A stretch of 64,000 nt of DNA from an uncultured Bdellovibrionales bacterium (GTDB lineage: Bacteria; Patescibacteriota; Minisyncoccia; Moranbacterales; UBA2206). Positions 1,726 through 17,772 of the stretch are shown here, in pieces (position 1 is the stretch's first letter; every line of letters begins with the position of its first letter). Position numbers and translations under genes: made by a program. The notes beneath the pieces are model-generated. The model worked only from the letters and a program-made list of their open reading frames with translations, had not been told where the DNA came from and made no database searches. The stretch spans positions 7,906 through 71,905 of the forward strand of contig CAYOTC010000002.1 in NCBI GenBank assembly GCA_964406815.1. The letters run 5' to 3'.

Positions 1726-1733
1726 AACTAAAA

Positions 1734-1770: not shown

Positions 1771-1785
1771 CCAAATAAATCTTTT

Positions 1786-2946
1786 TTATAATGTTATTCT
1801 ATAGAGCTTGTCATCATAGCGGTTGATAAAAAATAGGATTCCTTCGTCTGGGCTTAAAAACAGCTCTTTGGCATCATATTTGTCTTTTATTTTATCAAGA
1901 TCTATTATTCTTTCTTTTTCTCCCGAAGAAAGATTTATTTTCCAAAAAGTATCAATAGAATTAAATTTTCCCTCATTATAGTCATTGGGCATTATTGATG
2001 AATCAGGAATTGATCCGGGAAGAGCGTAATAAACGGTTTCACTGTCTTTTGACCAAACACATTTAGATATTATCGTAGGAATATTTAAAGCTTTTATTTC
2101 CCCTCCATTTTCATTTAGAATAAAAAGCTGTATTTTATTGCTTGCTTCTTCATTAAGGCGACTCATTAATATTTTTGTTCCATTGTTATTCCACAAATAA
2201 TCTGCTCCATAGCCATTATTAAAAATAATCTTTTCTTCGCTTCCAATTATAGAAATTTTTTTCAAGATTGTTTCAGAATAAGCATCAGGTTTATTCCAAA
2301 AAGAAACCGAACCTGTTTGAGGAATTTGAGCAATAGAGATATTTCTAAAAGATATATCCGTTAATTTTTTCCAGTTTTTCCCGTCGGGATCGGCTATATT
2401 AAGAGTTCTTTGTTTTGTAGATGGTTCAAAATGTTTATAAAATATCTTATTGTTGTTTTTATGCCAAACTATCTCGTCTATATTATCTTTTAATTGAACT
2501 CCTTTATTTTCAATATAATCATAATAATAAAAACGAGGAATCATTTTTAGATTAACAAATTTAGATATAACCTTACTTTTATCGCTTGACCAAAAAACAT
2601 TGTTTAAACCGATAAGTTCTTTTTCGGAAATAGCTCTTTTTCCGTTTCCTTCAAAGTCTATTTGAAATGCTTTGCCATTATTTTTTGAATAGTATTTTAT
2701 TGTATTTCCATTTTCTGAAATTATCGGAGAAATAACAGCTTCGTCTGAAATAAGAGATATTTCTGAAGAAGATGATTTTTTAATAATACCCGCTTCTTCA
2801 GAATTATTTTCTTCCTCAAGGGTATTTTCTGAAATTTCTTCTTTTGAAGCGTCGGATTTGAAGGAAATGTTATAAACTCCCCAAAAAAGAAGGGACAAGC
2901 AAAAAACCAATAAGGAGAGAAAAAACATTTTTTTTATCCAAGCCAT
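1786..2946 (-). CDS. Secreted beta-propeller (TolB/PD40-like) repeat protein, hypothetical
   Basis: N-terminal signal/TM (MAWIKKMFFLSLLVFCLSLLFWG), an acidic linker, then a repetitive beta-rich region typical of WD40-like periplasmic propellers. Confidence 0.35.
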   Translation of the reverse strand: MAWIKKMFFLSLLVFCLSLLFWGVYNISFKSDASKEEISENTLEEENNSEEAGIIKKSSSSEISLISDEAVISPIISENGNTIKYYSKNNGKAFQIDFEGNGKRAISEKELIGLNNVFWSSDKSKVISKFVNLKMIPRFYYYDYIENKGVQLKDNIDEIVWHKNNNKIFYKHFEPSTKQRTLNIADPDGKNWKKLTDISFRNISIAQIPQTGSVSFWNKPDAYSETILKKISIIGSEEKIIFNNGYGADYLWNNNGTKILMSRLNEEASNKIQLFILNENGGEIKALNIPTIISKCVWSKDSETVYYALPGSIPDSSIMPNDYNEGKFNSIDTFWKINLSSGEKERIIDLDKIKDKYDAKELFLSPDEGILFFINRYDDKLYRITL

Positions 2947-2990: not shown

Positions 2991-3722
2991 CTAAGGTCGA
3001 AAAAGCTCATTGGCTCCTTTTTTCAAACAGTCAATGGAGGTTGATATGAATATATTTCTTCCAATAATAGAGTAATTGATGGAACTTTTTTGATCATTGG
3101 GAAGTTTAATTTCGGTGTATCTGGCCAAACCATCTTTAAAAATCAAATTCTGGCTTAATTCTGACGGAGAAAAAACAATCTTTGGAAAAATAATATTATG
3201 TAAATCTTTGAGTATGGTATTCTCCCATTTTTTCATATCGATTGAAATGGAATATTCTGGGGATGAACTTTGAGCATCGTTTTCATCAATTGTTTGGGTG
3301 TTTAGTTTTATGCCAAAATCAATCGACTTTTCCGGATAGTAGCAAGAAAAAAACTGGTAGTCGTCGGGAATAATTTTTTCTGATAATTCTTGTCCCATAC
3401 TAAATTCGAGTGCCGGCATGGTTGTGTTTAAGGAAATAGAGCTTTTATTCGGATCAATTATTTCTGTGTGTAAAAAACCTTCAAAAGTTTTTTTTGCTCG
3501 GGAATTTGTGACAAATGTTTCGAATTGTTTTTTTATCTCTACATCAGAAAGCGGGGGTTGTTTATTTTCAGAAATAGGTAACCCTTGAGATGTCCCCAGG
3601 TCTTCTTTTGAAATTTCTTCTTGTTGTGTGTTTCTGTTTTGAAAACTGTTAAAAATGGAAAGAGCTGTTGCAGAAACAACCAAAATAATAACTAAAAGTA
3701 TGAATATTTTCTTTTTTGACAT
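2991..3722 (-). CDS. Hypothetical secreted/membrane-anchored protein
   Basis: N-terminal TM (IFILLVIILVVSATAL). No recognisable catalytic motif. Confidence 0.4.
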   Translation of the reverse strand: MSKKKIFILLVIILVVSATALSIFNSFQNRNTQQEEISKEDLGTSQGLPISENKQPPLSDVEIKKQFETFVTNSRAKKTFEGFLHTEIIDPNKSSISLNTTMPALEFSMGQELSEKIIPDDYQFFSCYYPEKSIDFGIKLNTQTIDENDAQSSSPEYSISIDMKKWENTILKDLHNIIFPKIVFSPSELSQNLIFKDGLARYTEIKLPNDQKSSINYSIIGRNIFISTSIDCLKKGANELFRP

Positions 3723-3731
3723 AATAATAAC

Positions 3732-4655
3732 TTATTTACATCCGCACTTGGCATTGTTAACACTGGCGTGTATGTGTTTTGTGTGTCCTATCGAGAGGTC
3801 TGTTTTTCCAGAAACCCATTCTTTATTATTAAAATAAACAGTATCAAAACCGCATTCAACAGCTGCTTTGGCAACAGGCTCATTGTTTGCTGAGTCAATA
3901 TCTGCCGCTTGAGATGTTCCTTTGCAGTTTTGTCCTCCAAAGTGGCAGGAATTTTTAGCATGAATGCAATAGCCACTTCCCACATAACTATTAACACATT
4001 TTTCACACCAATCGGGTTTGCTTACTGTAATGCTGGTTATTTTTGCTCCGACATTTTTTCCTTTTAAACATGCAAGTTTATGAACTAATTCAGGAGAAGT
4101 GAAATTGCAAACATCAGGAGATGTTTCGCTAACAACTACTTCAAGTTCGCCACAGCCATTATTTGTTGGAGCACAAGTGAAAGATGATGGTGTGGTTGAG
4201 GAAGATGCTCCAGCAGTTGAATTAGGGGCGGTACTGCCTTTTGTTGAGGTTGTTTTATCACAAGTAAAAATATTCCATTTGACAACCCCGATTCCGAGGT
4301 CGGTTTTTACTGCTAAGAGCCAAATAGTCACACTTACCATCAACCAAGCGGATTGAATGACCAAAAACCCTATAAGAGAGGCGGTAATAAATTTCTTAGC
4401 TTGTTCCTTGAGACTGGTTCCGGCAGAAATAACATACATCGCTCCGGCAATGGTTATTCCGGCAATGGCAAATAAAGTCGCAATGTTTCTTACCCACAAA
4501 ATAAAGCCGTTTATTCCGATTATGAAATGGCAAAGGGTACAAATATCTTCTCCCGGTCCTCCGCAAGGAACTAATCCGTCTGCAAAAGCGGAAAGAGGAG
4601 CGAGTAATGCTAAAAGGGAAAATAGTACAAAAAATTTTTTACTAAAAAATGACAT
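3732..4655 (-). CDS. T4SS pilin-like protein (VirB2/TrbC-like, CPR 'T4SS_pilin' type) fused to a ~170-aa Cys-rich C-terminal domain
   Basis: Signal peptide, then a 'LVPCGGPGEDICTLCH' Cys motif and two TM helices with 'AGITIAGAMYVISAGTSLKEQAKKFI'. The C-terminal half contains more than 14 Cys. Confidence 0.5.
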   Translation of the reverse strand: MSFFSKKFFVLFSLLALLAPLSAFADGLVPCGGPGEDICTLCHFIIGINGFILWVRNIATLFAIAGITIAGAMYVISAGTSLKEQAKKFITASLIGFLVIQSAWLMVSVTIWLLAVKTDLGIGVVKWNIFTCDKTTSTKGSTAPNSTAGASSSTTPSSFTCAPTNNGCGELEVVVSETSPDVCNFTSPELVHKLACLKGKNVGAKITSITVSKPDWCEKCVNSYVGSGYCIHAKNSCHFGGQNCKGTSQAADIDSANNEPVAKAAVECGFDTVYFNNKEWVSGKTDLSIGHTKHIHASVNNAKCGCK

Positions 4656-4679
4656 TTTTTATTTTTTTTCGAGTTTATT

Positions 4680-5303
4680 TTATTTAAAATTTTGTAAATT
4701 CATCTCAAGCAAATCTGGGTTTAGCGTTTTTAATAATAAATAAGCAATAAACGCCAGAATAAGTCCGGCAATGGCATCGGTAATGAATTTTTTGGCTTTT
4801 CCGGTACTACTTGAATTTCCGGCGCTGGTAATATACATAAATCCTCCAAGAGTAATCATAAGAAGGGCGGCGATCCCAATTGTCCAAAGGCCGAATTTAT
4901 AAATTGCATTTATATATTCAGGAAGATTCGTTGAAACACCTTCAAAACCGGGTATTTTTTCTAATAAAGTATATGTATATCCAGAGGATTTAGGGGATAT
5001 TTTTTTCCCAAAATCAGATTTTATTAAAGTATTTGCAATTTCTTCTTGACTTGCGTTCTTATTATTATCTATGAAATCATTTATTTTAGCAGTGGTTTTT
5101 TCTCCATATTCCTTTCGACAAGAATTTAAAAAAGCAGTTTTATCGGCATCTGTCTTAATTTGTTTTAAAATTCCCTTAGAAATCATTAAATTCATCATAT
5201 TTTCGCAATCATCAGCATAGACTGTTGGAACTAAAAAAAATAACAAAATAAAAACATTAAAAAGAGCGAATGTTATATTTATTTTTTTTTCATTAATCAC
5301 CAT
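4680..5303 (-). CDS. T4SS pilin-like protein (paralog)
   Basis: Signal/TM N-terminus and two C-terminal TM helices with 'LGGFMYITSAGNSSSTGKAKKFITDAIAGL', the same motif as the neighbouring pilin-like gene. Confidence 0.5.
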   Translation of the reverse strand: MVINEKKINITFALFNVFILLFFLVPTVYADDCENMMNLMISKGILKQIKTDADKTAFLNSCRKEYGEKTTAKINDFIDNNKNASQEEIANTLIKSDFGKKISPKSSGYTYTLLEKIPGFEGVSTNLPEYINAIYKFGLWTIGIAALLMITLGGFMYITSAGNSSSTGKAKKFITDAIAGLILAFIAYLLLKTLNPDLLEMNLQNFK

Positions 5304-7725
5304 ATTCTTTTGTTTTTGGAGTAAAGGAAAAAATTATTTTTATTATAAATACTATTAATCCTACCGAAATAATCGTTTTTAGGAGAAAAGCGATATAAGA
5401 AGGCAAGCCGGAAATAACCGTGGCAAATATTTTTTTTGTGGTTGGTTTTTGAGAAACATCAGATGACAAATCTCCAAAAAAGCTGTCAACCATATTTATT
5501 CTTATCGAATCGGAATATTGCTTCTCATAGAAATTATTATAGTTTACTTCATAGTATTTGTTAAGCGCTTTTTTAGTATTAACATCTTGAGTGTAGTTAG
5601 CTACTACGCTTACATCGTAAAATTCATCAGTATTTTTTCCAGGAAGAATAAGGACATTATCTTCAATTTGATAATTAGTTCCATCAACCAACTCATTATT
5701 AACATACCATAGGTAAGTGGTTTTTGCAGAGCTTCCACCGCTTGGAACGGCACGAAGCTTTATTTTGTTATTAGATAGAGCTTCAAAATTGTCCTTGTCG
5801 TAATCAGGATATTCCTTTCCGTCAAGATCTGTAAAATGACCCAAGAGTTTTCCTCGAGAAGTGTTTTGATCAGCAGATATTATTTTTATTTCCGGCTCAA
5901 CAATTGAAAAATATCTCGAAAGACTTATTTTCTCGCCATTATTCTTATTAATTGCTTCCAATGTAGCTGTGAAGTTTTTTCCAACTTCTTTTAATATTGG
6001 GAAAAATGAAAGATTCTTATAACTTTCATTATTTGTTCCGCAAATATCGGGAAATACGCATTCAATCGGTTTTCCATCTATTTTCCAGCTAAAATCGTTA
6101 AAATCGGAAGAATCGGAAATTTTTAATGCGATAAGTTCATTTTTATATACATTACAAATTGATTCTGGAAGAGCGTTTGTTTTTCCATTAGAATTTTCTT
6201 TTAGACAAATCTCTTTTTCATTTATAGTGGCATTGGAGAGATTTTCTGAAACAGAAGCAGTATATATTTTGAGATATTCGGAAGACGATATTATAGGGAG
6301 AATAGTTTCAGTAGTGCCCCTGTCGGTGCTTTTTTTTGATTTTGGATTAGTAACTGTGACCCGAGCTTTTATGTATTTATTATTCTTTATAATATCTTCC
6401 TTGAGGTTCATATTAAACTTGAAAGTGTTGATTCCAATTCCGCTTGTTTGGGATGCGTTTGGAAGCTTGCTTTTAATAAGGGCCGTTCCCCAGTCTGTTG
6501 GATTCATTGATTCGGCTAGAAAAATTTCCCATTGATAATTTAAATAGGATTGATCGGAAACATTAGAAACGGATGCAATAAAAGAAAGTTCGTCTCCAGC
6601 TTGTCCCTCCGGAGACGCATCGTTAATAGGTGAAGACGGACTACTAATCAGGCTAATATCTATTTTTGAGTTTATCCCAGTCTCTTCCGAAGGAGAGATA
6701 AAATTATACATAAGGCATTTTTTATTGAAATCGCTAACTTCTTTTGGGATAGTTTCACATTTATTTTTTAAAAGTGCCCACATTGTTTTATAGGAAGAAT
6801 CATATTCTTGGACTGTATCACTTGATATTCCTTCAACAACAACCCCTATCTCATCATCAGCTAAATATATCCAGGAAAATTCTGTAGCCCCAAGGCCAAT
6901 GATAGTAGCCTCATCAACTGTGCCGACCCCAGCCGTATCCGGATCGTCCGGATTAGATTGCCAGAAATGTTCTTTGGAAGCATCATTTTCATCAAAAAGA
7001 CCTTTTCCCATTTGGCCGCCATCTTTTCTTATATTTCCACTTGCATCCATTGAATAAGAGGAGGGAAATAAGTGGCCACAGTTAGGTAATTCTTTATCTT
7101 TGCCTGTTTTTACATCATGGTAAAAACAATATTCTTTTTTTCCGCCTTGATCAGCTCCTCCAGTAGGAGCTTTATAGGAATCTCCATCAGCAGAGAGTCC
7201 TTTACTTCTTCTTTCTTGGGAGGAATAAATCGCTCCATTTTTATCATACCCGCTGTTTACTCTTATTTGAGCCGCTTTTATTTTATAATCTTCTATATCA
7301 ACTATTTCGTCTTCATTAAGGTCGCAAATTTTTTTTATTCTATCTCTTGTTTCTTTACTGGCTTCTTTATAGGCGCTTTCTTTTTCGTATTTTTTGCATT
7401 CCGCATTACGCAGATACCAAGTAAAGTATAGATTTTTAAAATCATTCATAAAATACATCGGCATAGCTGTAGCAGTTATTTTTTCTCCCGGAATAGGATT
7501 TTTCGGACTAAAAACTAGGGAAACTTGGGGTGGATTTTTTTTGAAATTGGAAACATTAAATGTTTGTGCGGTATCTTTTACTGAATCTTTTTCTATACCT
7601 AAATCTTCAAAAATATCATTCATGGCTTCTCTTGGGTCTATCAAGCTACTACCAAGAGCAAAAACACCAGAAATGTTAGAGGTAAAAAAGTATACAAGGA
7701 AAACTGAAAGAATTATTTTTTTCAT
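5293..7725 (-). CDS. Large (810 aa) secreted surface protein with C-terminal TM anchor, hypothetical
   Basis: N-terminal signal (MKKIILSVFLVYFFTSNISGVFA) and C-terminal hydrophobic anchor (ISVGLIVFIIKIIF). Beta-rich, Ser/Asn-rich. Confidence 0.45.
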   Translation of the reverse strand: MKKIILSVFLVYFFTSNISGVFALGSSLIDPREAMNDIFEDLGIEKDSVKDTAQTFNVSNFKKNPPQVSLVFSPKNPIPGEKITATAMPMYFMNDFKNLYFTWYLRNAECKKYEKESAYKEASKETRDRIKKICDLNEDEIVDIEDYKIKAAQIRVNSGYDKNGAIYSSQERRSKGLSADGDSYKAPTGGADQGGKKEYCFYHDVKTGKDKELPNCGHLFPSSYSMDASGNIRKDGGQMGKGLFDENDASKEHFWQSNPDDPDTAGVGTVDEATIIGLGATEFSWIYLADDEIGVVVEGISSDTVQEYDSSYKTMWALLKNKCETIPKEVSDFNKKCLMYNFISPSEETGINSKIDISLISSPSSPINDASPEGQAGDELSFIASVSNVSDQSYLNYQWEIFLAESMNPTDWGTALIKSKLPNASQTSGIGINTFKFNMNLKEDIIKNNKYIKARVTVTNPKSKKSTDRGTTETILPIISSSEYLKIYTASVSENLSNATINEKEICLKENSNGKTNALPESICNVYKNELIALKISDSSDFNDFSWKIDGKPIECVFPDICGTNNESYKNLSFFPILKEVGKNFTATLEAINKNNGEKISLSRYFSIVEPEIKIISADQNTSRGKLLGHFTDLDGKEYPDYDKDNFEALSNNKIKLRAVPSGGSSAKTTYLWYVNNELVDGTNYQIEDNVLILPGKNTDEFYDVSVVANYTQDVNTKKALNKYYEVNYNNFYEKQYSDSIRINMVDSFFGDLSSDVSQKPTTKKIFATVISGLPSYIAFLLKTIISVGLIVFIIKIIFSFTPKTKEYGD

Positions 7726-7742
7726 CTTCTTAAGGTTAAAAT

Positions 7743-8402
7743 TTATCTTAAATTAGCAATCAAATAAGCATCTAATATTATTATAGATAAAAATCCAGAA
7801 ATATACGAATATAAAATTGATTTGCTCAAATAGCTTGTTAATCCTCCAGTGGTGGCCAGGATTAGAAATGGAAGCATTTGCCAAGAAAATGATTTTGTTA
7901 ATAATAAAAATAAGGCAAAAACGATAAATTGTATCAAAATTGCAAAAGATCCAATTGATTTCTTGAGAGAAAAAAGCATAAATCCCCGGAAAAAATATTC
8001 ATTAAAGATAAGATATAAATTCACAAAAACAATTTCATAAAGAACAAACGTCCAGAATTTTGAAACAACAATTTCCGGTAGTATATAGTTTTTAGAAAAA
8101 TTAGAATATTTGAAGAGAAATAAAAAAATAATCAGATTTAAAATTAAGGCACTGATTGATAGGATTACTCCTGTTTTTTTGTTTCCTAAGCCGATGCCGT
8201 ATTCAGTAAGTTTCTCTTTGGTTATGAATTTTATAAAAAGTAGAGGCAATAATATGAGAAAAAACAATCCCTTTGTTAGGGCTTGAATTGATCCTGAAGA
8301 GGGGAAAAAAATAAACAATGCCAAAGAAAAAATAATCACAACTAAAGAAGCAATTTGTTTATTTTTTTCTTTATAAAAATTGAAATCTAATCCCGGATTC
8401 AT
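7743..8402 (-). CDS. Polytopic membrane protein, CPBP/Abi-like (possibly non-catalytic)
   Basis: 6-7 TMs. 'FNEYFFRGFM' resembles CPBP motif 1 (EExxxR/FRG), but the protein contains no His at all, so catalytic motifs 2 and 3 are absent. Confidence 0.3.
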   Translation of the reverse strand: MNPGLDFNFYKEKNKQIASLVVIIFSLALFIFFPSSGSIQALTKGLFFLILLPLLFIKFITKEKLTEYGIGLGNKKTGVILSISALILNLIIFLFLFKYSNFSKNYILPEIVVSKFWTFVLYEIVFVNLYLIFNEYFFRGFMLFSLKKSIGSFAILIQFIVFALFLLLTKSFSWQMLPFLILATTGGLTSYLSKSILYSYISGFLSIIILDAYLIANLR

Positions 8403-8422
8403 ATTTTTTATTACTAAATAAA

Positions 8423-8932
8423 CTATCGATCATTATCCTGCCTTTCTTTAAGGGTAAGAATGAATGTTATGATTACAGTTATTGTTTGAATGGGTAGAAA
8501 ATTTATACCTAAAACTAATTCCATAGCAGTTCCTCCAGCCAGTGTTCCGTATTTTTTGACCAAGGAATTGGCGTTATTTTTTTTGGATGAGGCGCCGGCT
8601 AAAAGGAGGGTAAAAAAGATTAAAACTGAAGCCATAAAAGTTATCAACCATCCGATTCCAAAAAAAATAATTCCAAAATAATCAAAAATATCTTTCAGGG
8701 CTGCCATAGCAAGCGCGATTCCGAACATCCAATCAGTAAAAGGATTGAGATAAGCTGCAAGACTTATTGCTTCTTTTATTCCTTGTTTTTTTTCTTTTAA
8801 AACAGAACTAATTGCGCTTTTTTCATTTTTCTTTTTTTCTTCCTCTGAATTTTTAACAGGCATATTTTTGTCTGTATTGTCTCCATTTCTAATTTCCTCA
8901 AGTCTTTTTTTGTGTTCTATTTCCTGTTCCAT
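8423..8932 (-). CDS. Small membrane protein with charged N-terminus, hypothetical (T4SS-locus associated)
   Basis: A Lys/Glu-rich N-terminal 60 aa, then 3-4 TMs. Confidence 0.4.
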   Translation of the reverse strand: MEQEIEHKKRLEEIRNGDNTDKNMPVKNSEEEKKKNEKSAISSVLKEKKQGIKEAISLAAYLNPFTDWMFGIALAMAALKDIFDYFGIIFFGIGWLITFMASVLIFFTLLLAGASSKKNNANSLVKKYGTLAGGTAMELVLGINFLPIQTITVIITFILTLKERQDNDR

Positions 8933-8978
8933 AAGGTCAAATCTTAGTTAATTCATTTTCCGATATATCAAAAAAAAA

Positions 8979-10823
8979 CTATTCCAAGCCTTCTTCATCG
9001 GCAAATTCTCTTTTGGCTTGTTCAATTTCCAGAAGTTGGGAAGGATCAGTGGTAATTATCTGGTCTTCGGAATATGATGCTAATATTTTGATAGCAGCGT
9101 GTTTGGCGCCGGCAAAAAATATGCCTTCTCCGACATTGCTTTCAAGAAGAAGGAATTTTTCCTGATCAGTAAGATAGAAAGTTTCAGAAATAACGTCAAT
9201 TCCGGCCGGAGATTGCTTGAGAAGAAGTTGCAGGGAGGAGTTGGTAACGATAGCTTTTCCATAACGGGAAGTTAAAAAGTCATTTACATCCTGAGTAATT
9301 GTTGTTAGTCCGGTATAATATTTACGACAACGCTTGGCAACGCCGAACAAAAATGATGCTGCGTCGTCATATTTCATCATAACCCAAGCTTCATCAACCA
9401 TAACCAGGCGACGTTTACGATTAGCCCGCATTTCATTCCAGATGAATTGCAAAATCACATACATTGCAATCGGTCGCAAAGATTCTTCCATATCGCGGAT
9501 ATTGAAGACAACCAATTGGTTATCTGTTTTTATGTTGGTCGGATGATTCAGAAATCCGGAAAATACCCCTTCGGTATATTTTTCCAATCTTACCGCCAAA
9601 TCATCTCCCCCATCCATACTTTTAAGAACTTGATATAAATCAGACATTGTCGGAAAAGATTCTTTTGGAATGGAATTAAAATCAGTCTCAATAGAAATGT
9701 CACGAATAGCATAAGTTTCATGAACGGCTCGATCCAGGATAGAATCTTCTTCCGGAGTTATGTTTCCAAGCATAATATGAAGAAGTCCGAGCAGATTGGC
9801 GATATTATTTCTTAGGATATCTTCCTGATTTTCGTCTTCTTTGACTTGGGGTAAGTCAAATGGGTTGATGTGATCGCTGGAATTAAGAGAAATTCGGATA
9901 AATGTTCCGCCAACCGTGTCGCAAAGATGCTTGTATTCATTTTCCGGATCAATGATAATAACTTCCGTTCCAAGCATTAAAGAGCGAAGGACATCAAGTT
10001 TGACGGCATAACTTTTTCCGGCTCCAGATTTGGCGAAAACAACCATATTGGCGTTTTCCATCTCAAAACGGTCGAAAATTATCAAACTGTTGTTGTGGCG
10101 ATTGATTCCATAAAGCACTCCGGTGTTAGTGGAAATAGTTGAAGAAACAAAGGGAAAAGTGGTTGAAAGCGGAGCGCTGTTCATATTTGTTCCACTATTC
10201 AACTCGTCATTAGCTAGAGGGATTGTTGAGTTATATCCTTGCTCGGTTTTAAAAATTGCCGGTTTGACATAAACCAATTGGGCTTCCAAAATAGCTTCTA
10301 TGCTTTTCATTATCTCCCCCACTTCTTTTTCAGTATCTCCATAAGCGGTAATATATAGTCCGAATTTGAAAAATTTCTCCGTTCCTTGTTGGAGTTTATC
10401 GCGGAGTTCCTCAATATCTTGAATGGCGGTTTCAAGGACGGGATTTCTGATAAGTCCTTTTTCCTGTTCGATATTGATTTGAGATTCGACTTGCGTGGCG
10501 CTTTTTTTCAGGTTTTTTAATATATCATAAGTTTCAATTGGATGAACAAACATCGCTATATCAATCGGCATATCGATATTTATAATAGGAGAAAACCAGT
10601 TACTCTGGAGATATCTTGGATAAGCCATAGCAAAAAGTGTTCCGGCATAAGTCTGACCAACCTGGATATATTTCGGAGAAATGTTTATAGCGGCCGGCGC
10701 CAAAAGATCCTGGAGTTTGGCTAAGCCTTCCTGGTATATTTTTTCCGAGGCGATTACTTCATCTTCAATCTGTTTTGATTGGACAGGCGACGTCTTTTTT
10801 TGTTTTCCAAAAAAATCAAGCAT
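8979..10823 (-). CDS. virB4: VirB4/TrbE/CagE-family conjugative ATPase (central and C-terminal ATPase part)
   Basis: Walker A 'FAKSGAGKSYAVK' and Walker B 'LVMVDEAWVMM'. Length and motif order match the VirB4 ATPase domain. Confidence 0.8.
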   Translation of the reverse strand: MLDFFGKQKKTSPVQSKQIEDEVIASEKIYQEGLAKLQDLLAPAAINISPKYIQVGQTYAGTLFAMAYPRYLQSNWFSPIINIDMPIDIAMFVHPIETYDILKNLKKSATQVESQINIEQEKGLIRNPVLETAIQDIEELRDKLQQGTEKFFKFGLYITAYGDTEKEVGEIMKSIEAILEAQLVYVKPAIFKTEQGYNSTIPLANDELNSGTNMNSAPLSTTFPFVSSTISTNTGVLYGINRHNNSLIIFDRFEMENANMVVFAKSGAGKSYAVKLDVLRSLMLGTEVIIIDPENEYKHLCDTVGGTFIRISLNSSDHINPFDLPQVKEDENQEDILRNNIANLLGLLHIMLGNITPEEDSILDRAVHETYAIRDISIETDFNSIPKESFPTMSDLYQVLKSMDGGDDLAVRLEKYTEGVFSGFLNHPTNIKTDNQLVVFNIRDMEESLRPIAMYVILQFIWNEMRANRKRRLVMVDEAWVMMKYDDAASFLFGVAKRCRKYYTGLTTITQDVNDFLTSRYGKAIVTNSSLQLLLKQSPAGIDVISETFYLTDQEKFLLLESNVGEGIFFAGAKHAAIKILASYSEDQIITTDPSQLLEIEQAKREFADEEGLE

Positions 10824-10854
10824 AAATTCTTATTACTTCGTGTTTTATTTGATA

Positions 10855-11541
10855 TTATTTTAATTCTATGTTTGAAATATCTCCTAGTCCGGAATTGTTG
10901 GCAGTAGAAGGATTATAGCTGTTGAACATCAACTCGATGAGCTCTTGAGTTTTAAGCGGGATTATTTTCAGTCCTATTCCGGATAAAGCGGCAACTACTT
11001 GGTCAATGCGCTGGTTAAGCTGGGATTTATATATTTCGAAATTCTCTCTTTTTTCCAATATATTTTTTTTGGGATCAAGAAGGCTTTGCAGATTTTTGAA
11101 AAAACCGCCTTCTTTGTTTTCAATCGGAGAAAATGGAACAATGATATAAAAACTTTTATCCATTATATTGGATACGGAAATCAGTTGTCTTATGAAATTT
11201 CTATATTCGGATATTTGGAGGCGCATCAGTTCACTAGACTGTTGTTTTTCTTTATCAGTCAGAAAATCAAGATATTTATCCATATTGATTTTTCTTGAAC
11301 TGATCAATATTTGAACGGGAAAATCGACGGAATTGAGAAAACTTTGGTAATGACCAATAACTGCTTCCTGTTCCTCGGTTGATTTTAGATCGAAATTTAT
11401 GGAAGAAACTCCAAGCACGGCGCGCAAAGCGCCGTTTTTCAAAACAATCACATCTTCCTTTATTTCAGCCACGTCAATGAATTGCTGAGTGGCGGAAGTG
11501 GTGGTTTTTTTTGTATTTTTTTCTGAGTAAAGTTTTTCCAT
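10855..11541 (-). CDS. VirB4 N-terminal-domain-like protein encoded as a separate ORF 32 nt upstream of the VirB4 ATPase ORF
   Basis: 'FIDVAEIKEDVIVLKNGALRAVLGVSSINFDLKSTEEQEAVIGHYQSFLNSVDFPVQILI' resembles the VirB4/TraC N-terminal region. Same strand as virB4. Combined length 228+614 aa matches full-length VirB4. Confidence 0.45.
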   Translation of the reverse strand: MEKLYSEKNTKKTTTSATQQFIDVAEIKEDVIVLKNGALRAVLGVSSINFDLKSTEEQEAVIGHYQSFLNSVDFPVQILISSRKINMDKYLDFLTDKEKQQSSELMRLQISEYRNFIRQLISVSNIMDKSFYIIVPFSPIENKEGGFFKNLQSLLDPKKNILEKRENFEIYKSQLNQRIDQVVAALSGIGLKIIPLKTQELIELMFNSYNPSTANNSGLGDISNIELK

Positions 11542-11620
11542 AGATGAATTATAACACGGTTTTTATTTTTTATTTTACAAAAATAATAAATTCTAAAATT
11601 TAAAATATGATCTTTTGAGA

Positions 11621-12022
11621 TTATTTTCTTTTATTTATGTCAAGCGACTCAGAAATTTGGGAGAGCTCGTCAAAAGAAGCGGTTTTTCGAAGATTTTTTT
11701 TTGGAGCTGTTTTTAAAATGGTGTTTTTTGCTTGATTTTTTTCCGTGATTTTTTTCCAAATATACATTCTTGGTCTCATAAAAAAGTAAAATATCGAGCC
11801 GACAAGAAAAACAAAAGGCTGGCCATAGGGGCGATAAAAAGCAAAAGCTAGGGCGATAGCCAGAACCGGAATTGCTGCGATATAGAATATTTGAGTTTCA
11901 AGGAAGGTATAAAGAAGAAGCACGATTATTCCCCCTAAAAAAAGCCAACCGAGCTGTTTGGCGGTCAGTGGACCGACAATCTTGTCTTCGACATTTATAA
12001 ATTGTGGAACATTAAACATCAT
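11621..12022 (-). CDS. PrgI/VirB3-like small membrane protein
   Basis: 133 aa with 2 TMs. The N-terminus 'VPQFINVEDKIVGPLTAKQLGWL' matches the PrgI-family pattern (..eDki.GplT.rQ). Immediately upstream of virB4, as in Gram-positive T4SS loci. Confidence 0.5.
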   Translation of the reverse strand: MMFNVPQFINVEDKIVGPLTAKQLGWLFLGGIIVLLLYTFLETQIFYIAAIPVLAIALAFAFYRPYGQPFVFLVGSIFYFFMRPRMYIWKKITEKNQAKNTILKTAPKKNLRKTASFDELSQISESLDINKRK

Positions 12023-12119
12023 AAATTCTTATAACATATATCATATAACATATATCATATAACATATATCATTGTAACACGTAATAAAATATTTTATTTG
12101 TATTTATTAATTTGAAAAA

Positions 12120-13283
12120 TCAATTCTCTTTTAGGTTGACGACATTTTTCTGGGAAAAATTGTCTTTGACAGGATTTTTCAATTGAATATTGCTCAAGTC
12201 AACAGTTGAATTTGAGAATGCTTTTTTAGGTTCGGCTGGCGGGAAATTTTTTTGTGAGTTTATTTTTTCTATGGGAAATTTATGCGGAGAGGAAAAGTTG
12301 ATATTGTTTTGATTTTCCGGAGCGGGGTTTTCATTTTTTGGATTCAAATCTCTTCTCCAATTGCTCAATCTTTCTTCTACATTGACTTCCGGTTTTTTTT
12401 CGGAAGGTCTTAGGTTGATTGAAGACGAGAATGAGGCTGGTTTTGCTGAAGGTTTTTCTTGAGGTCTCAGAAAGATTACCTGTTTTCTGTCGGCATCAAT
12501 TGAAAGCGGAGTATTTTCATCAAATGATTTGGCGATATCGGTCAATTTTTCTCTTTCAGAAGAAGAAAGTTTCTGCGTGTTGATGTTTCGAAAAAGATAA
12601 TCCATTCGCACCATCTGATCGTGATTGTTTATTCCGACGTTGAACATATAATCAGAAATCCAATTCTTGATCGATGGCCGGACCGGTTCAGGGAATGATT
12701 TCAATCGGATGTGTTCAGATGTAATAAGCTGTTCGCCAATTTCCGGAAATTTTTTCATCGCGTCGGAGATGTTGAGGTTTAGGAGATTTTGGGGAGTTTG
12801 ACGAATTTCTTCCTTTTTTATTTCTTCCATCTTTTCTTTTTCTTCATCCTCTTTTTCCCTGATTATCCAAGGCTCTATTTCTAAAACTTTTTGCCAAGCA
12901 GCATCTTCGGAAATAATTGGTGTAGTTTTTAATCGTTCCCATTTGTATAAAAGTTCTGGTGCATTAGTAAAATAATCGGGAAATTTAGCAAAAAGTCTTT
13001 TGTTTATTTCATATGAAATTCCAAAAGCTATATTATCGGCAATATTATTTTGTTTGACTATGTGAGGTAGATTTTCCAATTTTTCTTCGCCTACAAAGAT
13101 TAATCCTACGGGTGTAGATAATTGTTCAATAATTTTTTCTTGTTCACTATAAAGAAAGCAAGATTTTTCAAGTTCAAAACGAAAATCATTTGAACCAAAA
13201 AATTCTCTTTCTGAATCTGGTAATTTTGAAATTTTTTCAAAAAAATCCATAGAATAAAAATAATTAAAGCTATTTGTATGCAC
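12120..13283 (-). CDS. Hypothetical cytoplasmic protein (T4SS locus)
   Basis: 387 aa, no TM, Glu/Lys-rich central region. Confidence 0.4.
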   Translation of the reverse strand: MHTNSFNYFYSMDFFEKISKLPDSEREFFGSNDFRFELEKSCFLYSEQEKIIEQLSTPVGLIFVGEEKLENLPHIVKQNNIADNIAFGISYEINKRLFAKFPDYFTNAPELLYKWERLKTTPIISEDAAWQKVLEIEPWIIREKEDEEKEKMEEIKKEEIRQTPQNLLNLNISDAMKKFPEIGEQLITSEHIRLKSFPEPVRPSIKNWISDYMFNVGINNHDQMVRMDYLFRNINTQKLSSSEREKLTDIAKSFDENTPLSIDADRKQVIFLRPQEKPSAKPASFSSSINLRPSEKKPEVNVEERLSNWRRDLNPKNENPAPENQNNINFSSPHKFPIEKINSQKNFPPAEPKKAFSNSTVDLSNIQLKNPVKDNFSQKNVVNLKEN

Positions 13284-15648
13284 GCAATTGAGGATCTCTG
13301 TCGATAGTTTTTTTCAATGATTGAACATTAGGATCGGTGCCTGGTGCAGAATTATAAATATATCTAACAATGTTTCTTGCTTTAGTATTGTCCATATTAC
13401 TCACCATCTCTTTGAATTTTCCAATACTAATATTTCTAGCAAAGGATTCTTTATGGAAAGTGCTTACAGTTGAAATGTCAAAATCAGAGAGAGTGTCTTT
13501 ATTTCCTTTTTCATAAATATATTTCTCTAGAGAAGGGTCTATACTGGCTGATAGTTTTCCTGTTGTTGCTGTGTAAGCTCTCTGAACAAATTTAGAAGTT
13601 GAATCTCCTGGAACATTGTATGTACTATTAGAAGCAAGTTTATTCAATGAAATTTCTAGATTATTTTTAAAAGAAGCTCCTTTTTTCTTTAATTTTACAA
13701 TATCATCAATATTTGCAGCATCCTCTTTAGCTACAATTTCCATAAATGCAGCATTTTTATAAGTATCACTTTTATAATTGTCAAGTCTGAATTGACTACT
13801 TTTCACAAAATCTTCCATATGCTTAGTATTGAAATTTATATCTCCAGTTGTTGGATCTGTGTCGATTGTTCCATCTGATTTGAAATTTGCAAAAGCCAAT
13901 TCTGGTCTAATTGATCTTACTTTATAAGCAAGTTGTTTAAATTCTTGAGAAGCTTCTCCAAAGGTTCTTCTGAAATCTTCAAAATCAGTATCTTCTATTA
14001 TGCCATGTTTATCAGCTAATTCTTTAATGGCTGCAGCTCGTGTATATTTATCAGAGCTTGTTGCAAGAGTCTTAAGATCAGATGCCATCTTATTGCTCAT
14101 ATCATTATCATCATAAGCCTCTTTAACTTTCTTGGCATTAAGTTTATCTTGAGCGCCTTTAACTCCCATTCTAGCTGCCAATTTAGCCTCTCTTTCCTCA
14201 GCTCTTTCAGAACCAAGCCAACCTGATTTTTTAAACTGCGCAAAGCGCTGTTTCATTCCGCCCGGAATACCGGTTTTTTTAAATCCCCATGAAGCTAAAG
14301 GTCTTATACCGCCGAGATTTTTGGCGAAAGATTTTCCGTGTTTAGTGACGCTGCCTACGATTGCGCTTGCGCCGATTAGACTGCTTTTTTTAGCTACCAT
14401 CATTCCCATCCAGAGAATAATAACCGGAATGGAAAAATAAGCTGCTGAGCCTATGAGTCTTTGCAGAGAGCTAATTTTAGTATTATCTTCTGCTAAAGAT
14501 GAAAACTGATTTTGTATGCCTGCCATTTCTCCTATTATTTGCAATGAAATAAAAACGAAAAAAAGCATTATCGGTCCGAAAAAAGCGGCATCCATCAATT
14601 TTTTCCACCACTCGCCGGCTTTTCCGGAAAGTTCCGATCCGGGAAGCGTCGGACCGACAAAAGCTATGGGGGAAAAAATAATCAGAATTGCCAATGTGAC
14701 AACTCGGACAAGCAAAAGAAGCGCTAAAACAATAAAAGTCATTGCCAGAATAAATGTGAAAACTATGGAGGCGATTATAAACATAACATCTGGATTGGGT
14801 GTTGTTATAATTTTTTCCATTTCGCTAGCATCCGCTATGTTTGCTAATGTTCCGGTGGGTGATAATTGATTGATGAAAAAATACATAATAACATTAGCAA
14901 CATCGATGATGAAGCGGGTTATGGGATAACTGAAATTAACAAGAAGCGCCATTAGGATGAGGTTGGGAACAACCTTTGACCAATGATATTTATCCACTTG
15001 GAAAACTGTGCAGAAAGCGCTATAGAGAAGAACAAAGATAAAAACAATATTTAGAAAATCTCTGACTAGTGACCATGCAAAGTAAATAGCTTCATTATTT
15101 ATTATGGTGCTTAGGACAGTGGGGTTAATTATGGCATCAAAGATTACCCCAGCAATGCTTAATAAAACTACCACGAAGCTAAGTATGTGAAGAAGTGGGC
15201 ACTTCAGAAGATAATTACCCAGATTTGATATGCCAGAAGGAAGATTAGCACAGACGCTGGTATTATTTTCAACTGCCTTAGACGATCCGGCTCTGTAATG
15301 TTTATCGTGATTTTTAATTTCTGAAGTTGGTTTTATTCCTTGACCTCCATTATTCCAATATTCTATTCCGTCAAACTTAATATGAGGATTGGGAACTGCC
15401 ATATTTGAAAATCCATCGTTGATTTTTTCTTTCTGACAAATTTCATAACATTTTTCTTTGTCGGAAGCTTCTAATGGGTATTTATCGTTATAAAAAACAG
15501 ATTCTTTTGCATATCCAGAGCCTGATCGTCCACAAATACATTCTCCCGCCTGCGCTTTTTCTGCTCCAAATAATCCAAAAAAAGCCGTTATTGCCAAAAC
15601 AAAAACAGCAAAAAGAATAATTGTTTTTAAAAATTGATTATTTTTCAC
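13270..15648 (-). CDS. VirB6/TrbL-like polytopic channel protein with Cys-containing N-terminal ectodomain and long C-terminal soluble domain
   Basis: Signal peptide, 'GECICGRSGSGY', at least 7 TMs in the middle, then a ~330-aa hydrophilic tail. The architecture is typical of Gram-positive VirB6 homologs (e.g. TcpH/PrgH-like). Confidence 0.45.
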   Translation of the reverse strand: MKNNQFLKTIILFAVFVLAITAFFGLFGAEKAQAGECICGRSGSGYAKESVFYNDKYPLEASDKEKCYEICQKEKINDGFSNMAVPNPHIKFDGIEYWNNGGQGIKPTSEIKNHDKHYRAGSSKAVENNTSVCANLPSGISNLGNYLLKCPLLHILSFVVVLLSIAGVIFDAIINPTVLSTIINNEAIYFAWSLVRDFLNIVFIFVLLYSAFCTVFQVDKYHWSKVVPNLILMALLVNFSYPITRFIIDVANVIMYFFINQLSPTGTLANIADASEMEKIITTPNPDVMFIIASIVFTFILAMTFIVLALLLLVRVVTLAILIIFSPIAFVGPTLPGSELSGKAGEWWKKLMDAAFFGPIMLFFVFISLQIIGEMAGIQNQFSSLAEDNTKISSLQRLIGSAAYFSIPVIILWMGMMVAKKSSLIGASAIVGSVTKHGKSFAKNLGGIRPLASWGFKKTGIPGGMKQRFAQFKKSGWLGSERAEEREAKLAARMGVKGAQDKLNAKKVKEAYDDNDMSNKMASDLKTLATSSDKYTRAAAIKELADKHGIIEDTDFEDFRRTFGEASQEFKQLAYKVRSIRPELAFANFKSDGTIDTDPTTGDINFNTKHMEDFVKSSQFRLDNYKSDTYKNAAFMEIVAKEDAANIDDIVKLKKKGASFKNNLEISLNKLASNSTYNVPGDSTSKFVQRAYTATTGKLSASIDPSLEKYIYEKGNKDTLSDFDISTVSTFHKESFARNISIGKFKEMVSNMDNTKARNIVRYIYNSAPGTDPNVQSLKKTIDRDPQLRAYK

Positions 15649-15674
15649 TGGATTTTATTTCTGAAAAACTATAA

Positions 15675-16619
15675 TTATCTTCTATTGGCTGATTGATAGG
15701 CGGCAGATGGTCCATATTGGTTTACGGAATCATTAATATTTTGATTGACGCGACTATTGACAGAGTTTATTTCTTTGTTGATTGATTTTTTCACGTTTCC
15801 AATCCCGGCTTGAACGGATTGGGTGATCATTTGGGAAACTACCGTTGAAATAATTTCTCCCATACTGGTTGCTCCGGCAATAGTTTTGTTTCCCAAATCA
15901 TAGGCATTGACAGTATTGCCATATAAGATTGATCCGGGAATATAAATTTGTCCACTGCCATCTTCATCTCCGCCCCCTTTAAATCCGCTATATGCAACTG
16001 ATTTTGCTTGGGCTATTTCTTTTTCTTCTTCCAAATAGGCATTGTATTTATTTTTTATATAAAAGTCCATCGCCCAAGGATTGTTTACTCCTTCCATGTA
16101 TGAATTAAGCCCGGAAAAGTTATAGTTATTTCCGCTCCTGAACATGCTGTCAGAATTGGAAAAATTTACCTGCAAGGGTTCGTTTTCAGAAGCTGATCCC
16201 TTGGCAATGCCTTCCATTAATTTAAAATAATTACTTCCATTGGCATTTATATAATTAGAACTTCCCTTGCCACCGAGAGTGTAACTTATTTGGTCATTAA
16301 TGTAACGATTCGTTCTTTCAGTTGGTTGATTTATTAAATAATCTTCCCAATTAGTTATGAATTTTGTATCAGAAAGGCTGTTTCCGGAAAGCATACTTTC
16401 AGTTTGTTTAATCATCATATTAGCCGCTTGTTTTTTCTCTACTCCTCTCAGTACTCCATTCATAAGTGACTTTAATTCCTCAACGCCAGCTCCTATGATA
16501 GCTGCCGGGATTGACATCCAAGCATTAGCACATTTTGTAGGAAAAGATGAAAAAATAAAAAACAAGATAAGAAGAATAAAAATCTTTTTTCCAAAAAGTA
16601 ATTTATTTTTTTTAACCAT
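15675..16619 (-). CDS. Secreted hypothetical protein (T4SS locus)
   Basis: N-terminal signal/TM (IFILLILFFIFSSF). Asn/Ser/Gly-rich. Confidence 0.4.
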   Translation of the reverse strand: MVKKNKLLFGKKIFILLILFFIFSSFPTKCANAWMSIPAAIIGAGVEELKSLMNGVLRGVEKKQAANMMIKQTESMLSGNSLSDTKFITNWEDYLINQPTERTNRYINDQISYTLGGKGSSNYINANGSNYFKLMEGIAKGSASENEPLQVNFSNSDSMFRSGNNYNFSGLNSYMEGVNNPWAMDFYIKNKYNAYLEEEKEIAQAKSVAYSGFKGGGDEDGSGQIYIPGSILYGNTVNAYDLGNKTIAGATSMGEIISTVVSQMITQSVQAGIGNVKKSINKEINSVNSRVNQNINDSVNQYGPSAAYQSANRR

Positions 16620-16620
16620 T

Positions 16621-17706
16621 TTATTTGTCTAGATTAATTTGAAAATCTTCTTCTGGGGCAAATAGACCGATATCTTTTAATTTTTTCTTTAAATTTTCAT
16701 CGTATTTCAAATCATATTCACTGAATTTTTGGGTTATCTCTGTTGAATAGTTTAAAATTTCTCCTAGAAGAGCTTCAATTTTTCCATAAGAAATTATTTG
16801 AGAAATAGGATCATCAGTTTTGATTGCTATGTCATTTTTAAGAGAAAGAGAATAATAAGCGAAACGTAATCCCCTGGTGTGTAGTTCAATTAAATCTTCT
16901 GGAACCTCAACTTCTTTCATTTGTTCGATTATTTTTTCAGAATTTTCAGCGAATTCTTTTATTGAATCAGTGTTTCCTGTTGAGATAGCTGAAATAATTT
17001 GATTTGTTGGCTCGGCAAAGAAATTGGAAATATCTGATCCGGAAGTTATCGGTTTGTCAGAATTGCTGGAAAAAATATAATAAATGGCAATTATATAATT
17101 GGTGAAATCTTCTTTCTTCTTTTCTATCTGACGTTCCTTGCTCAGTTTCCCATAATTCTGTTTTTTTATTTTTATATCATCGGTATTTATTTCCGGCATA
17201 TCATCTTCATTTATTTCACTGGAAGATTTTAGGATTTCATCTACTATGGCTTGAGTTTCTTCCAGGGTAATTTCTTGATCCTCAGAATCTTTGCTGCTGG
17301 AAAGAATGCTTATTTTTTCCGCCATTTTCTGGGTAAGATTTTCTTCCGATTCGTAACTGGATTTATTGTTTGTATTTTTTTCATTTTCTATTATTCTATC
17401 CCCCGGAGCGGGAATAGTCGGATTATAACCGCTTTTAACTTCGATTCCATCAGAATAGCTGTCGCTATCGGTGTCGCGATTTTGCGGATCGGTTCCATAT
17501 ATCTTTTCTTCTTCATCAGAAAGCCCATCCTGATCGCTGTCAAGAAAAATACTTTTAGTATTGGTTGAATTTTCTGCGACAGCATAAAAGGAAAAAGTCA
17601 ACGCTAAAAGAAACAGCAACACCAAAAAAGAAAGATTGATATTTTTCATTTTCATATTGAAATAATTATAGCATAATTTTTTCCAATACAAAAATATTTT
17701 ATCCAC
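16621..17706 (-). CDS. Secreted acidic protein with DxDxDG-type Ca-binding motifs
   Basis: Signal peptide, then 'DSDQDGLSDEEEKIYGTDPQNRDTDSDSYSDGIEVKSGYNP' (thrombospondin-type-3 / EF-hand-like Asp repeats). Confidence 0.4.
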   Translation of the reverse strand: MDKIFLYWKKLCYNYFNMKMKNINLSFLVLLFLLALTFSFYAVAENSTNTKSIFLDSDQDGLSDEEEKIYGTDPQNRDTDSDSYSDGIEVKSGYNPTIPAPGDRIIENEKNTNNKSSYESEENLTQKMAEKISILSSSKDSEDQEITLEETQAIVDEILKSSSEINEDDMPEINTDDIKIKKQNYGKLSKERQIEKKKEDFTNYIIAIYYIFSSNSDKPITSGSDISNFFAEPTNQIISAISTGNTDSIKEFAENSEKIIEQMKEVEVPEDLIELHTRGLRFAYYSLSLKNDIAIKTDDPISQIISYGKIEALLGEILNYSTEITQKFSEYDLKYDENLKKKLKDIGLFAPEEDFQINLDK

Positions 17707-17772
17707 AACTGAAATAGTTTTAAGCTTTTGAGATGATTTGCTTAAATAAAAGAAGATTGCTAGATTTAATGT

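Follow-up and report, generated by a model that had tools for sequence, protein, structure and literature searches.

How a type IV secretion system (T4SS) in the CPR (candidate phyla radiation; Patescibacteria) gets through a cell wall, and whose wall that would be, is the question raised by a run of genes on contig CAYOTC010000002.1 (GenBank assembly GCA_964406815.1), of which a stretch of 64,000 nucleotides (positions 7,906 to 71,905 of the contig, hereafter the window, in whose numbering all coordinates are given) was analyzed. The run comprises 14 minus-strand open reading frames (ORFs) placed head to tail from 17706 down to 1786, with intergenic gaps of -14 to 97 bp (Table 1), and we have hardly any doubt that it encodes a Patescibacteria T4SS. 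The member that bears most directly on the question is a VirB2-like pilin with a C-terminal domain that, judging from its modelled fold and its sequence motifs, is probably a zinc peptidase of the LAS type acting on peptidoglycan. As a whole, the locus is best explained as a chromosomal T4SS of Moranbacteria (class Paceibacteria) that falls into the Patescibacteria-specific branch of monoderm MPF_FATA conjugation machineries and serves an epibiotic lifestyle, a reading to which we assign a probability of roughly 0.75.

Pilins fused to putative wall hydrolases

The initial annotation had listed two VirB2/TrbC-like pilins, and two ORFs, the only such ones in the window, were indeed recognized by a hidden Markov model (HMM) derived from the pilin ORFs found in the window and in the related loci introduced below: 4680-5303 with 96.6 bits (95.4 for the matched domain) and 3732-4655 with about 69–70 bits. 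Both also matched the Pfam pilin family PF18895, and the 307-aa product of 3732-4655 was modelled as a two-helix hairpin, so the pilin fold stands; this second protein is, however, a fusion and not a plain pilin. From N- to C-terminus it consists of a signal peptide, a Cys-containing pilin hairpin (residues ~43–119; AlphaFold2 (AF2) helices at 38–76 and 82–119, predicted local distance difference test (pLDDT) about 50–70), a Ser/Thr-rich linker and a Cys-rich C-domain (residues 160–307, i.e., 148 residues; window 3735-4178). Hydrophobic segments were found in its pilin part by a transmembrane (TM) scan, and the translation gives SAGTSLKEQAKK as the basic loop sequence. The putative hydrolase of the locus, for which the unannotated ORFs had been proposed as candidates, is this C-terminal domain and none of those ORFs.

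When the C-domain was modelled alone (12 sequences), a pLDDT of 88.8 and a predicted template modelling score (pTM) of 0.85 were obtained. The 16 best Foldseek matches of this model in the PDB were Hedgehog N-domains (probability 0.98–1.0, E-values 1.8e-4 to 8e-3), after which came VldE, the zinc DD-peptidase of Streptomyces (1lbu), the endolysin LysB4, MepA and the T5 L-alanoyl-D-glutamate peptidase, while the viral library BFVD yielded M15 peptidases of phages as well as cell-wall hydrolases and tape-measure proteins. A full-length AF2 model of the 307-aa protein (5-sequence alignment, pLDDT 58.5) was discarded, as it returned helical-bundle noise only in Foldseek searches against the PDB. 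At the sequence level, single-sequence searches of Pfam and the PDB gave only weak matches to the Hedgehog N-terminal domain, and a profile of 14 orthologous C-domains improved the Hedgehog match among PDB sequences to an E-value of 0.0018.

In this profile alignment, the invariant C-domain motifs S-C-H-Y-G-G...A-V-D and N-H-V-H-V-S fall onto S-L-H-Y-E-G...A-L-D and N-H-V-H-V-S-V of Hedgehog, where its zinc ligands reside. These motifs match the signature HxxxxxxD / HxH carried by LAS enzymes (lysostaphin, D-Ala-D-Ala peptidase, Sonic hedgehog). Among the closest homologues of the C-domain, residues H232, H238, D252, H294, and H296 do not vary; in two wider alignments (14 and 12 homologues) H232, H238, D252, and H296 remain invariant, with H294 invariant in one and nearly so in the other. 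The domain thus resembles the LAS or Hedgehog/DD-peptidases (MEROPS M15-like) in its fold, as seen by Foldseek, and in its invariant H...D and HxH residues, and it differs from other LAS peptidases by about ten conserved cysteines, an insertion within the SxHxxG...AxD motif and an occurrence almost exclusively as the C-terminal passenger of a pilin. The relationship between Hedgehog and DD-peptidases itself has been described before (Roelink 2018, PMC6027127). An exhaustive phmmer search of 1.84 billion proteins recovered C-domain homologues in 42 representative clusters only. Because a pilin domain lies N-terminal to the peptidase domain in 37 of the 51 collected homologues (most of the others being short and probably partial), the subfamily appears to be essentially a pilin passenger.

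That the C-domain is an active wall peptidase seems likely to us, and four points have to be set against it. It belongs to no Pfam peptidase family (HH_signal scored 17 bits, below the gathering threshold of 22.1, and no M15 model matched), the E-values against PDB sequences are marginal (0.0018), and the candidate for the catalytic Glu, E279, is placed by an uncertain alignment. In addition, animal Hedgehog, with the same fold and ligands, is to our knowledge no established wall hydrolase, so the fold does not by itself prove wall-hydrolase activity.

In order to see how common such fusions are, the pilins of related loci were surveyed. When the VirB4 protein was searched against genomes, each species being represented once, 80 related loci were obtained, and the pilin census, with the window counted in, covered 81 pilin ORFs in 49 pilin-holding loci. 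PF18895 was matched by 76 of these ORFs at E ≤ 0.01 (best 9e-22), and a C-terminal extension of at least 100 aa was present in 55. The Pfam domains found on pilin ORFs were SLT (17), SLT_3 (8), glucosaminidase (1), and phage lysozyme (1); LAS-type domains were carried by 14 ORFs, a second M15-like variant, assigned by sequence motifs, by three, and one ORF had a sub-threshold NlpC/P60 match (15.3 bits). Following clustering of the extensions, at least one pilin fused to a putative wall hydrolase was counted in 38 of the 49 pilin-holding loci, and hydrolase fusion would seem to prevail in this lineage. In the loci most closely related to the window, a glycosidase-fused pilin is paired with a peptidase-fused one, which recalls the two-domain VirB1-type hydrolases of Gram-positive conjugation systems; several other loci have one pilin gene only, fused to a hydrolase, and in some, unfused pilins (136–162 aa) stand beside fused ones.

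The other pilin of the window, 4680-5303, has a unique N-terminal extension of ~95 aa. In most close relatives the gene at its position bears a C-terminal SLT or SLT_3 domain, and the window's copy has either lost its glycosidase or never had one. It also matches weakly NF045849, the Mbov_0395 family of pilin-like conjugal transfer proteins from Mycoplasma integrative and conjugative elements (ICEs; E 8e-4). Together with the VirB4 matches to Mycoplasma ICEs reported below, this hints at a pilin-like component in at least one MPF_FATA subgroup, in which case no borrowing from diderm systems has to be invoked for the pilins of Patescibacteria. Among the 81 pilin ORFs, 25 form a Cys class with the pattern PCG...CxLC...W..F.C (e.g., 3732-4655 of the window, L009:16466-17350 and L056:7567-7983), in which three Cys precede the first helix and one lies just past the second. 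As a speculation, disulfides could staple the extracellular termini of these pilins, recalling the head-to-tail cyclization of TrbC/VirB2.

What is new here is the pilin-borne Hedgehog/DD-peptidase-like domain together with the lineage-wide pilin-hydrolase architecture. No description of pilin-hydrolase fusions was found in the searchable literature, the coverage of which is incomplete, and the main texts of two central studies (PMC12102498, PMC10633639) mention neither such fusions nor a CPBP/Rce1-type gene. The consecutive Pfam entries PF18895 (pilin) and PF18896 (SLT_3) suggest that curators may have noticed the architecture. VirB1 homologues have been tied to virB4 mainly in Paceibacteria (PMC12102498), which fits the fusions seen here, and wall hydrolases that are covalently attached to VirB2-like pilins in the VirB1 role may account for the small number of separate VirB1 genes in surveys. 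Pilin-borne hydrolases would also point to breaching of the wall at the contact site.

The secretion platform and its ancestry

The VirB4 ATPase spans positions 178–729 of the 752 positions of the conju_CD1110 profile, the first ~177 being absent, and also matches P-loop_TraG (4e-29) and PDB entry 4ag5 (1.9e-54), the solved C-terminal domain of Thermoanaerobacter VirB4. Both of its Walker motifs, A (AKSGAGKS) and B (LVMVDE), are intact. As judged from profile scores, the assignment made in the initial annotation stands, with the monoderm conjugative families scoring best (CD1110 370 and Mycoplasma ICE VirB4 310 bits, the latter 309.8 unrounded), ahead of F-type TraC (194), VirB4/CagE (115), and CedB (44.7); the P-type and Bacteroidetes models scored far below CD1110. 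The missing N-terminal part is encoded by a separate upstream gene (10855-11541), VirB4 being split: this TrsD-like gene aligns only to the N-terminal part of VirB4 (conju_CD1110 positions 1–120; VirB4_plasma of Mycoplasma ICEs, positions 90–233) and is syntenic in 76 loci with a median identity of 63%. A fusion of VirB4 to a downstream 169-aa protein, suggested in three loci, was rejected as an artefact of tblastn alignments crossing stop codons.

The PrgI/VirB3-like gene is syntenic in 73 loci. The polytopic protein that had been called VirB6-like with a long tail has a signal/TM segment, a Cys-rich ectodomain, six more TM segments and, at its C-terminus, a hydrophilic tail of 375 aa, which agrees with that call. 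Pfam gave no match for the window's own protein; since PF04610 (TrbL/VirB6) was matched by 4 of its 25 orthologues (best 1e-8), the label holds by orthology. All genes listed in the initial annotation were found at their coordinates on the minus strand, and to these two overlooked conserved members have to be added, the TrsD-like gene and a CPBP/Rce1-like gene (7743-8402).

Systems of this kind are already known from descriptions published in 2023–2025, and the locus adds no new one. VirB4 has been reported from 2,417 of 3,035 Patescibacteria genomes as a clade nested in MPF_FATA, with TrsD (the most abundant component), PrgI, VirB6, and VirB2-like pilins encoded near virB4, relaxases almost absent, VirB8 almost undetectable and ksgA often close by (Quiñonero-Coronel et al. 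2025, PMC12102498). In S. epibionticum (T4SS genes SEML1_0006-0019), epibiotic growth was shown by transposon sequencing (Tn-seq) to require the T4SS together with the pilin array, and the same study noted that coupling and relaxase proteins are lacking (Wang et al. 2023, PMC10633639). The window shares with this clade a VirB4 of FATA type next to a TrsD-like gene, PrgI/VirB3, VirB6, and VirB2-like pilins near virB4, a chromosomal position, a close ksgA, no relaxase nearby and no recognizable VirB8. The earlier description of the locus as a Gram-positive-type (MPF_FATA-like), relaxase-less T4SS of the CPR type with VirB2-like pilins therefore agrees with the published systems (PMC12102498, PMC10633639, PMC12857230). 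The locus differs from them in having two pilins instead of arrays of up to 11, and in carrying the hydrolase on pilin genes in place of separate peptidase and lysozyme genes downstream of virB4. Further conserved members in this lineage are a CPBP-like gene without His, the cytoplasmic protein of 387 aa and the anchored surface protein of 810 aa.

Compared with MPF_FATA systems of monoderms, as represented by pCF10 (prgH-prgI-prgJ-prgK-prgL), the order VirB6, VirB3, VirB4 is the same, with the VirB6-like gene (13270-15648) upstream of PrgI and VirB4 like prgH, and a membrane-tethered wall hydrolase is likewise present. Unlike in pCF10, no relaxase, type IV coupling protein (T4CP; PcfC-like), VirB8-like (PrgL) component or LPXTG adhesin was found at the locus, VirB4 is split, VirB2-like pilins are present, and a LAS-type metallopeptidase on a pilin takes the place of the SLT and CHAP domains of PrgK. 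The VirB4 scores for the CTn/CD1110 family and Mycoplasma ICEs, and the lack of outer-membrane core components, are further features shared with the monoderm MPF_FATA class.

VirB4 is 66–81% identical in the 80 related loci, most of which bear the label Moranbacteria/Moraniibacteriota, Parcubacteria group or Patescibacteria group. Twelve of the 14 genes each recur in 41–80 of them with order and orientation preserved, the pilin-peptidase gene recurs in 30, and the flanks without T4SS genes (ubiA-like, ksgA and a Wzy-like gene) are conserved too. Because of this synteny and these housekeeping flanks, and because the nearest plasmid-borne VirB4 proteins, all from monoderms (Actinomycetota or Bacillota), are only 26–35% identical, the locus reads as chromosomal, vertically inherited and of monoderm ancestry, and not as an ICE. 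About 19 of the loci (among them L020, L023, L029, L035, L036, L038, L040, L041, L047, and L048) are titled 'uncultured Bdellovibrionales'; their VirB4 is 66–80% identical, many have the same operon, and the titles are almost certainly mislabelled.

What the machine may do

In the mechanism we favor, the platform of VirB4, TrsD, VirB3, and VirB6 would extract pilins from the membrane and assemble them into a conduit, or a short pilus, that points at a host cell. Given that a pilin is expected to have a signal peptide, two helices and both of its termini outside, the peptidase would come to lie outside the membrane on a Ser/Thr-rich tether of ~50 residues. As the enzyme would be held there by its pilin part, wall cleavage would be restricted to where the machine sits, be it in the wall of the cell itself (the VirB1 role) or in the wall of the host at the contact point, and the system would serve the exchange of macromolecules with the host rather than conjugation. 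Phage tail-associated lysins (M15 peptidases in tape-measure or tail proteins) offer a parallel, namely a peptidase of the same fold on an extracellular filament or needle that crosses the wall; this is an analogy only, since the carriers are not homologous and the locus has no phage genes. The matter is of wider interest since about 80% of CPR genomes possess the Patescibacteria T4SS, and epibiotic growth requires it in the single species tested so far.

Display of the peptidase on a polymerized pilus can be entertained only tentatively, and the boldest version, an enzyme-decorated conjugative-type pilus that cuts through the host wall with the pilins of Moranbacteria as carriers of wall-degrading enzymes, we consider unlikely; if true, it would give a route by which epibiotic CPR bacteria reach the host cytoplasm, with the peptidase subfamily as a pilin-exclusive passenger. 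Several observations count against the favored mechanism. A passenger of 190 residues may be incompatible with pilin polymerization, the loci in which the only pilin is hydrolase-fused suit a membrane anchor as well as a pilus, no VirB8-like component was detected in the locus by Pfam, NCBIfam or PDB-profile searches, and a VirD4-like protein may sit outside the window, as it does in most Patescibacteria (PMC12102498).

The alternative that survives best does without a pilus: the fused pilin domain would be a membrane anchor or targeting module, and a VirB1-type hydrolase beside the channel would open the cell's own wall to allow assembly of the machine. We regard it as a credible minority view. 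Monoderm T4SSs need a membrane-anchored multi-domain hydrolase (PMC12102498), which in pCF10 is PrgK, directly after VirB4; the N-terminal TM segments of PrgK and TraG do the anchoring in Gram-positive conjugation systems, and the paired glycosidase- and peptidase-fused pilins of the closest relatives mirror the PrgK design of glycosidase plus peptidase. The loci with a single, hydrolase-fused pilin gene likewise speak for it. Such an anchor leaves unexplained why some loci keep unfused pilins beside the fused ones and why the window itself retains a second pilin without a hydrolase (4680-5303), and it sits uneasily with the pilin arrays that are essential in S. epibionticum (PMC10633639) and with tubular structures seen where a cultivated parasitic relative contacts its host, for which T4SS pili have been suggested (bioRxiv 10.64898/2026.06.21.733656).

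A machine for DNA uptake, similar to the archaeal Ced system or working with competence proteins, had been offered in the initial annotation as one possible role, and we find it improbable. No relaxase or T4CP (VirD4) domain was found in gene-like ORFs of at least 100 aa across the 64-kb window, as had been noted before, and this absence would suit DNA uptake; as an argument about function it is weak, because the VirD4-like genes present in most Patescibacteria genomes usually lie far from virB4 (PMC12102498). The presence of comM/yifB about 4 kb away from where the gene run ends and the co-localization of T4SS loci with comF, recG, and radA in the class ABY1 (PMC12102498) point the same way. 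Against this, VirB4 reached only 44.7 bits with the CedB model (cut-off 700) and 18.7 bits with CedD, Pfam and NCBIfam searches revealed no DNA-binding or DNA-processing-like protein in the locus, and in S. epibionticum deletion of comEC abolishes transformation with viability unaffected while the T4SS is still essential, its essentiality thus being independent of DNA uptake by ComEC (PMC10633639 and a 2025 review, PMC12857230). A conjugative element (ICE or integrated plasmid) or its decayed remnant is very improbable: VirB4 does score above the NCBIfam cut-off for CD1110 conjugal transfer ATPases and a tyrosine recombinase lies at 55543-56487, but the latter is ~38 kb away and has the two-domain architecture common to XerC/D-type tyrosine recombinases, no relaxase, T4CP, replication or integration gene lies in or beside the locus, its housekeeping flanks keep the same order across dozens of species, its GC content (0.31–0.38) resembles that of the remaining window, and identity to VirB4 of the nearest plasmid is no more than 35%.

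Gene run, accessory members and surroundings

The block proposed originally, 3732-17706, is real but was drawn too short: the unit probably continues for ~2 kb downstream through 2991-3722 and 1786-2946 to a strong terminator (1774-1728), so that the compact gene run with its terminator occupies 1728-17706 on the minus strand. No other minus-strand hairpin of similar size was found between 1774 and 17706. At the opposite end, a promoter-like element lies within a 118-bp divergent region common to a ubiA-family gene and the gene run, 9 nt upstream of the ATG at 17655 (start of the signal peptide MKMKNINLSF), which is probably the true start of the first gene. Compared with shuffled sequence, promoter-like sites showed no excess here, and the element is offered tentatively.

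Table 1. Features of the gene run, in window coordinates.
Feature	Position	Strand	Basis or detail
Intrinsic-terminator-like hairpin, strong	1728..1774	-	20-bp stem, 6 G-C pairs, then T run; closes the gene run
Membrane-anchored TolB-propeller-like protein, last before terminator	1786..2946	-	TIGR02800, 22 bits, E 6.6e-5 (weak)
Bitopic 243-aa protein	2991..3722	-	TM segment at residues 6–24; counterpart in 1 of 80 related loci (tblastn)
Pilin-peptidase fusion	3732..4655	-	PF18895, 20.8 bits (below gathering); Hedgehog/DD-peptidase-like C-domain
VirB2-like T4SS pilin, no cysteines, no hydrolase domain	4680..5303	-	PF18895, 27.0 bits (gathering 26.6)
810-aa surface protein, signal peptide and C-terminal TM anchor	5293..7725	-	Hydrophobic segments at residues 4–22 and 770–788
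CPBP/Rce1-like six-TM protein	7743..8402	-	PF02517, 23.3 bits (gathering 22.4; marginal)
Small membrane protein, three TM segments, charged N-terminus	8423..8932	-	TM scan
VirB4 ATPase	8979..10823	-	NCBIfam NF045971 conju_CD1110, 369.9 bits (cut-off 325)
TrsD-like, VirB4 N-terminal domain as separate gene	10855..11541	-	NF041427 TrsD, 35.8 bits
PrgI/VirB3-like, two TM segments	11621..12022	-	PF12666 PrgI, 35.1 bits (gathering 27)
Cytoplasmic 387-aa protein, no TM segment	12120..13283	-	Orthologue alignment; start overlaps VirB6 stop by 14 nt
Extended VirB6-like polytopic protein	13270..15648	-	TM scan; PF04610 through orthologues
Bitopic protein	15675..16619	-	Hydrophobic segment at residues 7–25, then ~280 extracytoplasmic residues; syntenic in 41 loci
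Secreted TSP3 protein (calcium-binding Asp repeats)	16621..17706	-	PF18884 TSP3_bac, 31.5 bits (gathering 25)
Promoter-like element	17665..17691	-	TTGTAT, 15 nt, TGcTATAAT; tentative, read from sequence

The accessory set of Moranbacteria, namely the His-less CPBP-like, the cytoplasmic 387-aa, the 810-aa anchored, the TSP3 and the TolB-like propeller proteins, is conserved, and its members might fill the roles of VirB8, adhesin and substrate that are still vacant. The secreted protein with calcium-binding Asp repeats noted originally is borne out by TSP3_bac (bacterial thrombospondin type-3 repeats); it keeps the same position in 45 related loci and has weak NCBIfam matches to the cohesion/adhesion proteins MtsD and CglD. 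For the 810-aa protein, the signal peptide and C-terminal anchor were likewise found as annotated. Its invariant columns lie mostly in the N-terminal ~350 aa, the rest is more variable, orthologues reach 1141 aa, and no Pfam or PDB match was obtained (the orthologue set gave only single-member weak Pfam hits); it is a candidate adhesin.

CPBP/Rce1 glutamic intramembrane proteases have a catalytic EExxxR motif plus histidines in FxxxH and HxxxN/D. The CPBP-like protein of the window, encoded by a gene syntenic in 63 loci, contains no His at all, no conserved His column exists among 64 orthologues, and an E-F-F-x-G-F motif alone is kept. With the catalytic His motifs absent, the protein is probably a non-catalytic scaffold and less likely to be a protease. 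The neighboring small membrane protein (8423-8932) has the motifs AxLKDxLD and E...G...LP conserved in 59 orthologues and no family match in Pfam or NCBIfam.

The cytoplasmic 387-aa protein has a conserved central domain of ~110 aa and a Pro/Asn-rich tail of low conservation that ends in a conserved PKNVVNLKE. Its homologues fall into 98 clusters, none with a Pfam domain, the few named ones being Moranbacteria, Parcubacteria or Patescibacteria. Given this C-terminal motif and the overlap with the VirB6 stop, one might speculate that it is a machine-associated factor or a substrate.

By topology alone, 15675-16619 and 2991-3722 are candidates for the VirB8 role. The former and its orthologues had no Pfam, NCBIfam or PDB-profile match apart from single-member weak Pfam hits of orthologues. 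An hhalign comparison with PrgL gave it a probability of 0.7%, in a setting where the positive controls (PrgI-PrgI, VirB6-PrgH) failed too. The latter, without a Pfam or NCBIfam match, is uncertain as a T4SS member and represents either a recent insertion or a very fast-evolving gene. The propeller-like gene 1786-2946 is syntenic and co-oriented in 50 loci (45% identity). PDB profile searches with orthologue alignments of 15675-16619, 12120-13283, VirB6, 1786-2946, and 5293-7725 returned nothing better than E 0.2.

The window has a low GC content (about 0.29–0.43) and housekeeping genes such as gyrA, ftsH, tilS, ksgA, comM/yifB, the CCA-adding enzyme, pcrA/uvrD, and tRNAs. Polytopic Wzy_C (O-antigen-ligase-like) proteins are encoded at 523-1725, adjoining the T4SS block in 43 loci, and at 29578-31065. 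A secreted DUF348-G5-DPBB protein (RlpA-like lytic transglycosylase fold; RpfB/YabE-like) at 20200-21144 adjoins ksgA and is found in 31 related loci.

At ~29–31 kb the genes switch from mostly minus (1–29 kb) to mostly plus strand (29.6–33 and 40–55 kb), with a strongly positive GC skew. This could be the replication origin, 12–28 kb from the T4SS, and proximity of the T4SS to the origin has been noted in PMC12102498. Neither a dnaA gene nor a cluster of DnaA boxes was found in the window; near-consensus boxes number 36 against 17 expected and are dispersed, and one perfect box lies at 17699-17707, in the upstream region of the operon. Far from the T4SS, a LysM-LysM-CHAP wall hydrolase (57044-58066) and a Fic/DOC-domain protein (58382-59542) are encoded next to each other and are possible host-interaction factors. 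A pooled scan of small ORFs between 22000 and 64000 yielded a Peptidase_C39-type protein, a 23S rRNA intervening-sequence protein, an NYN-domain protein, MscL and a DksA/TraR zinc finger.

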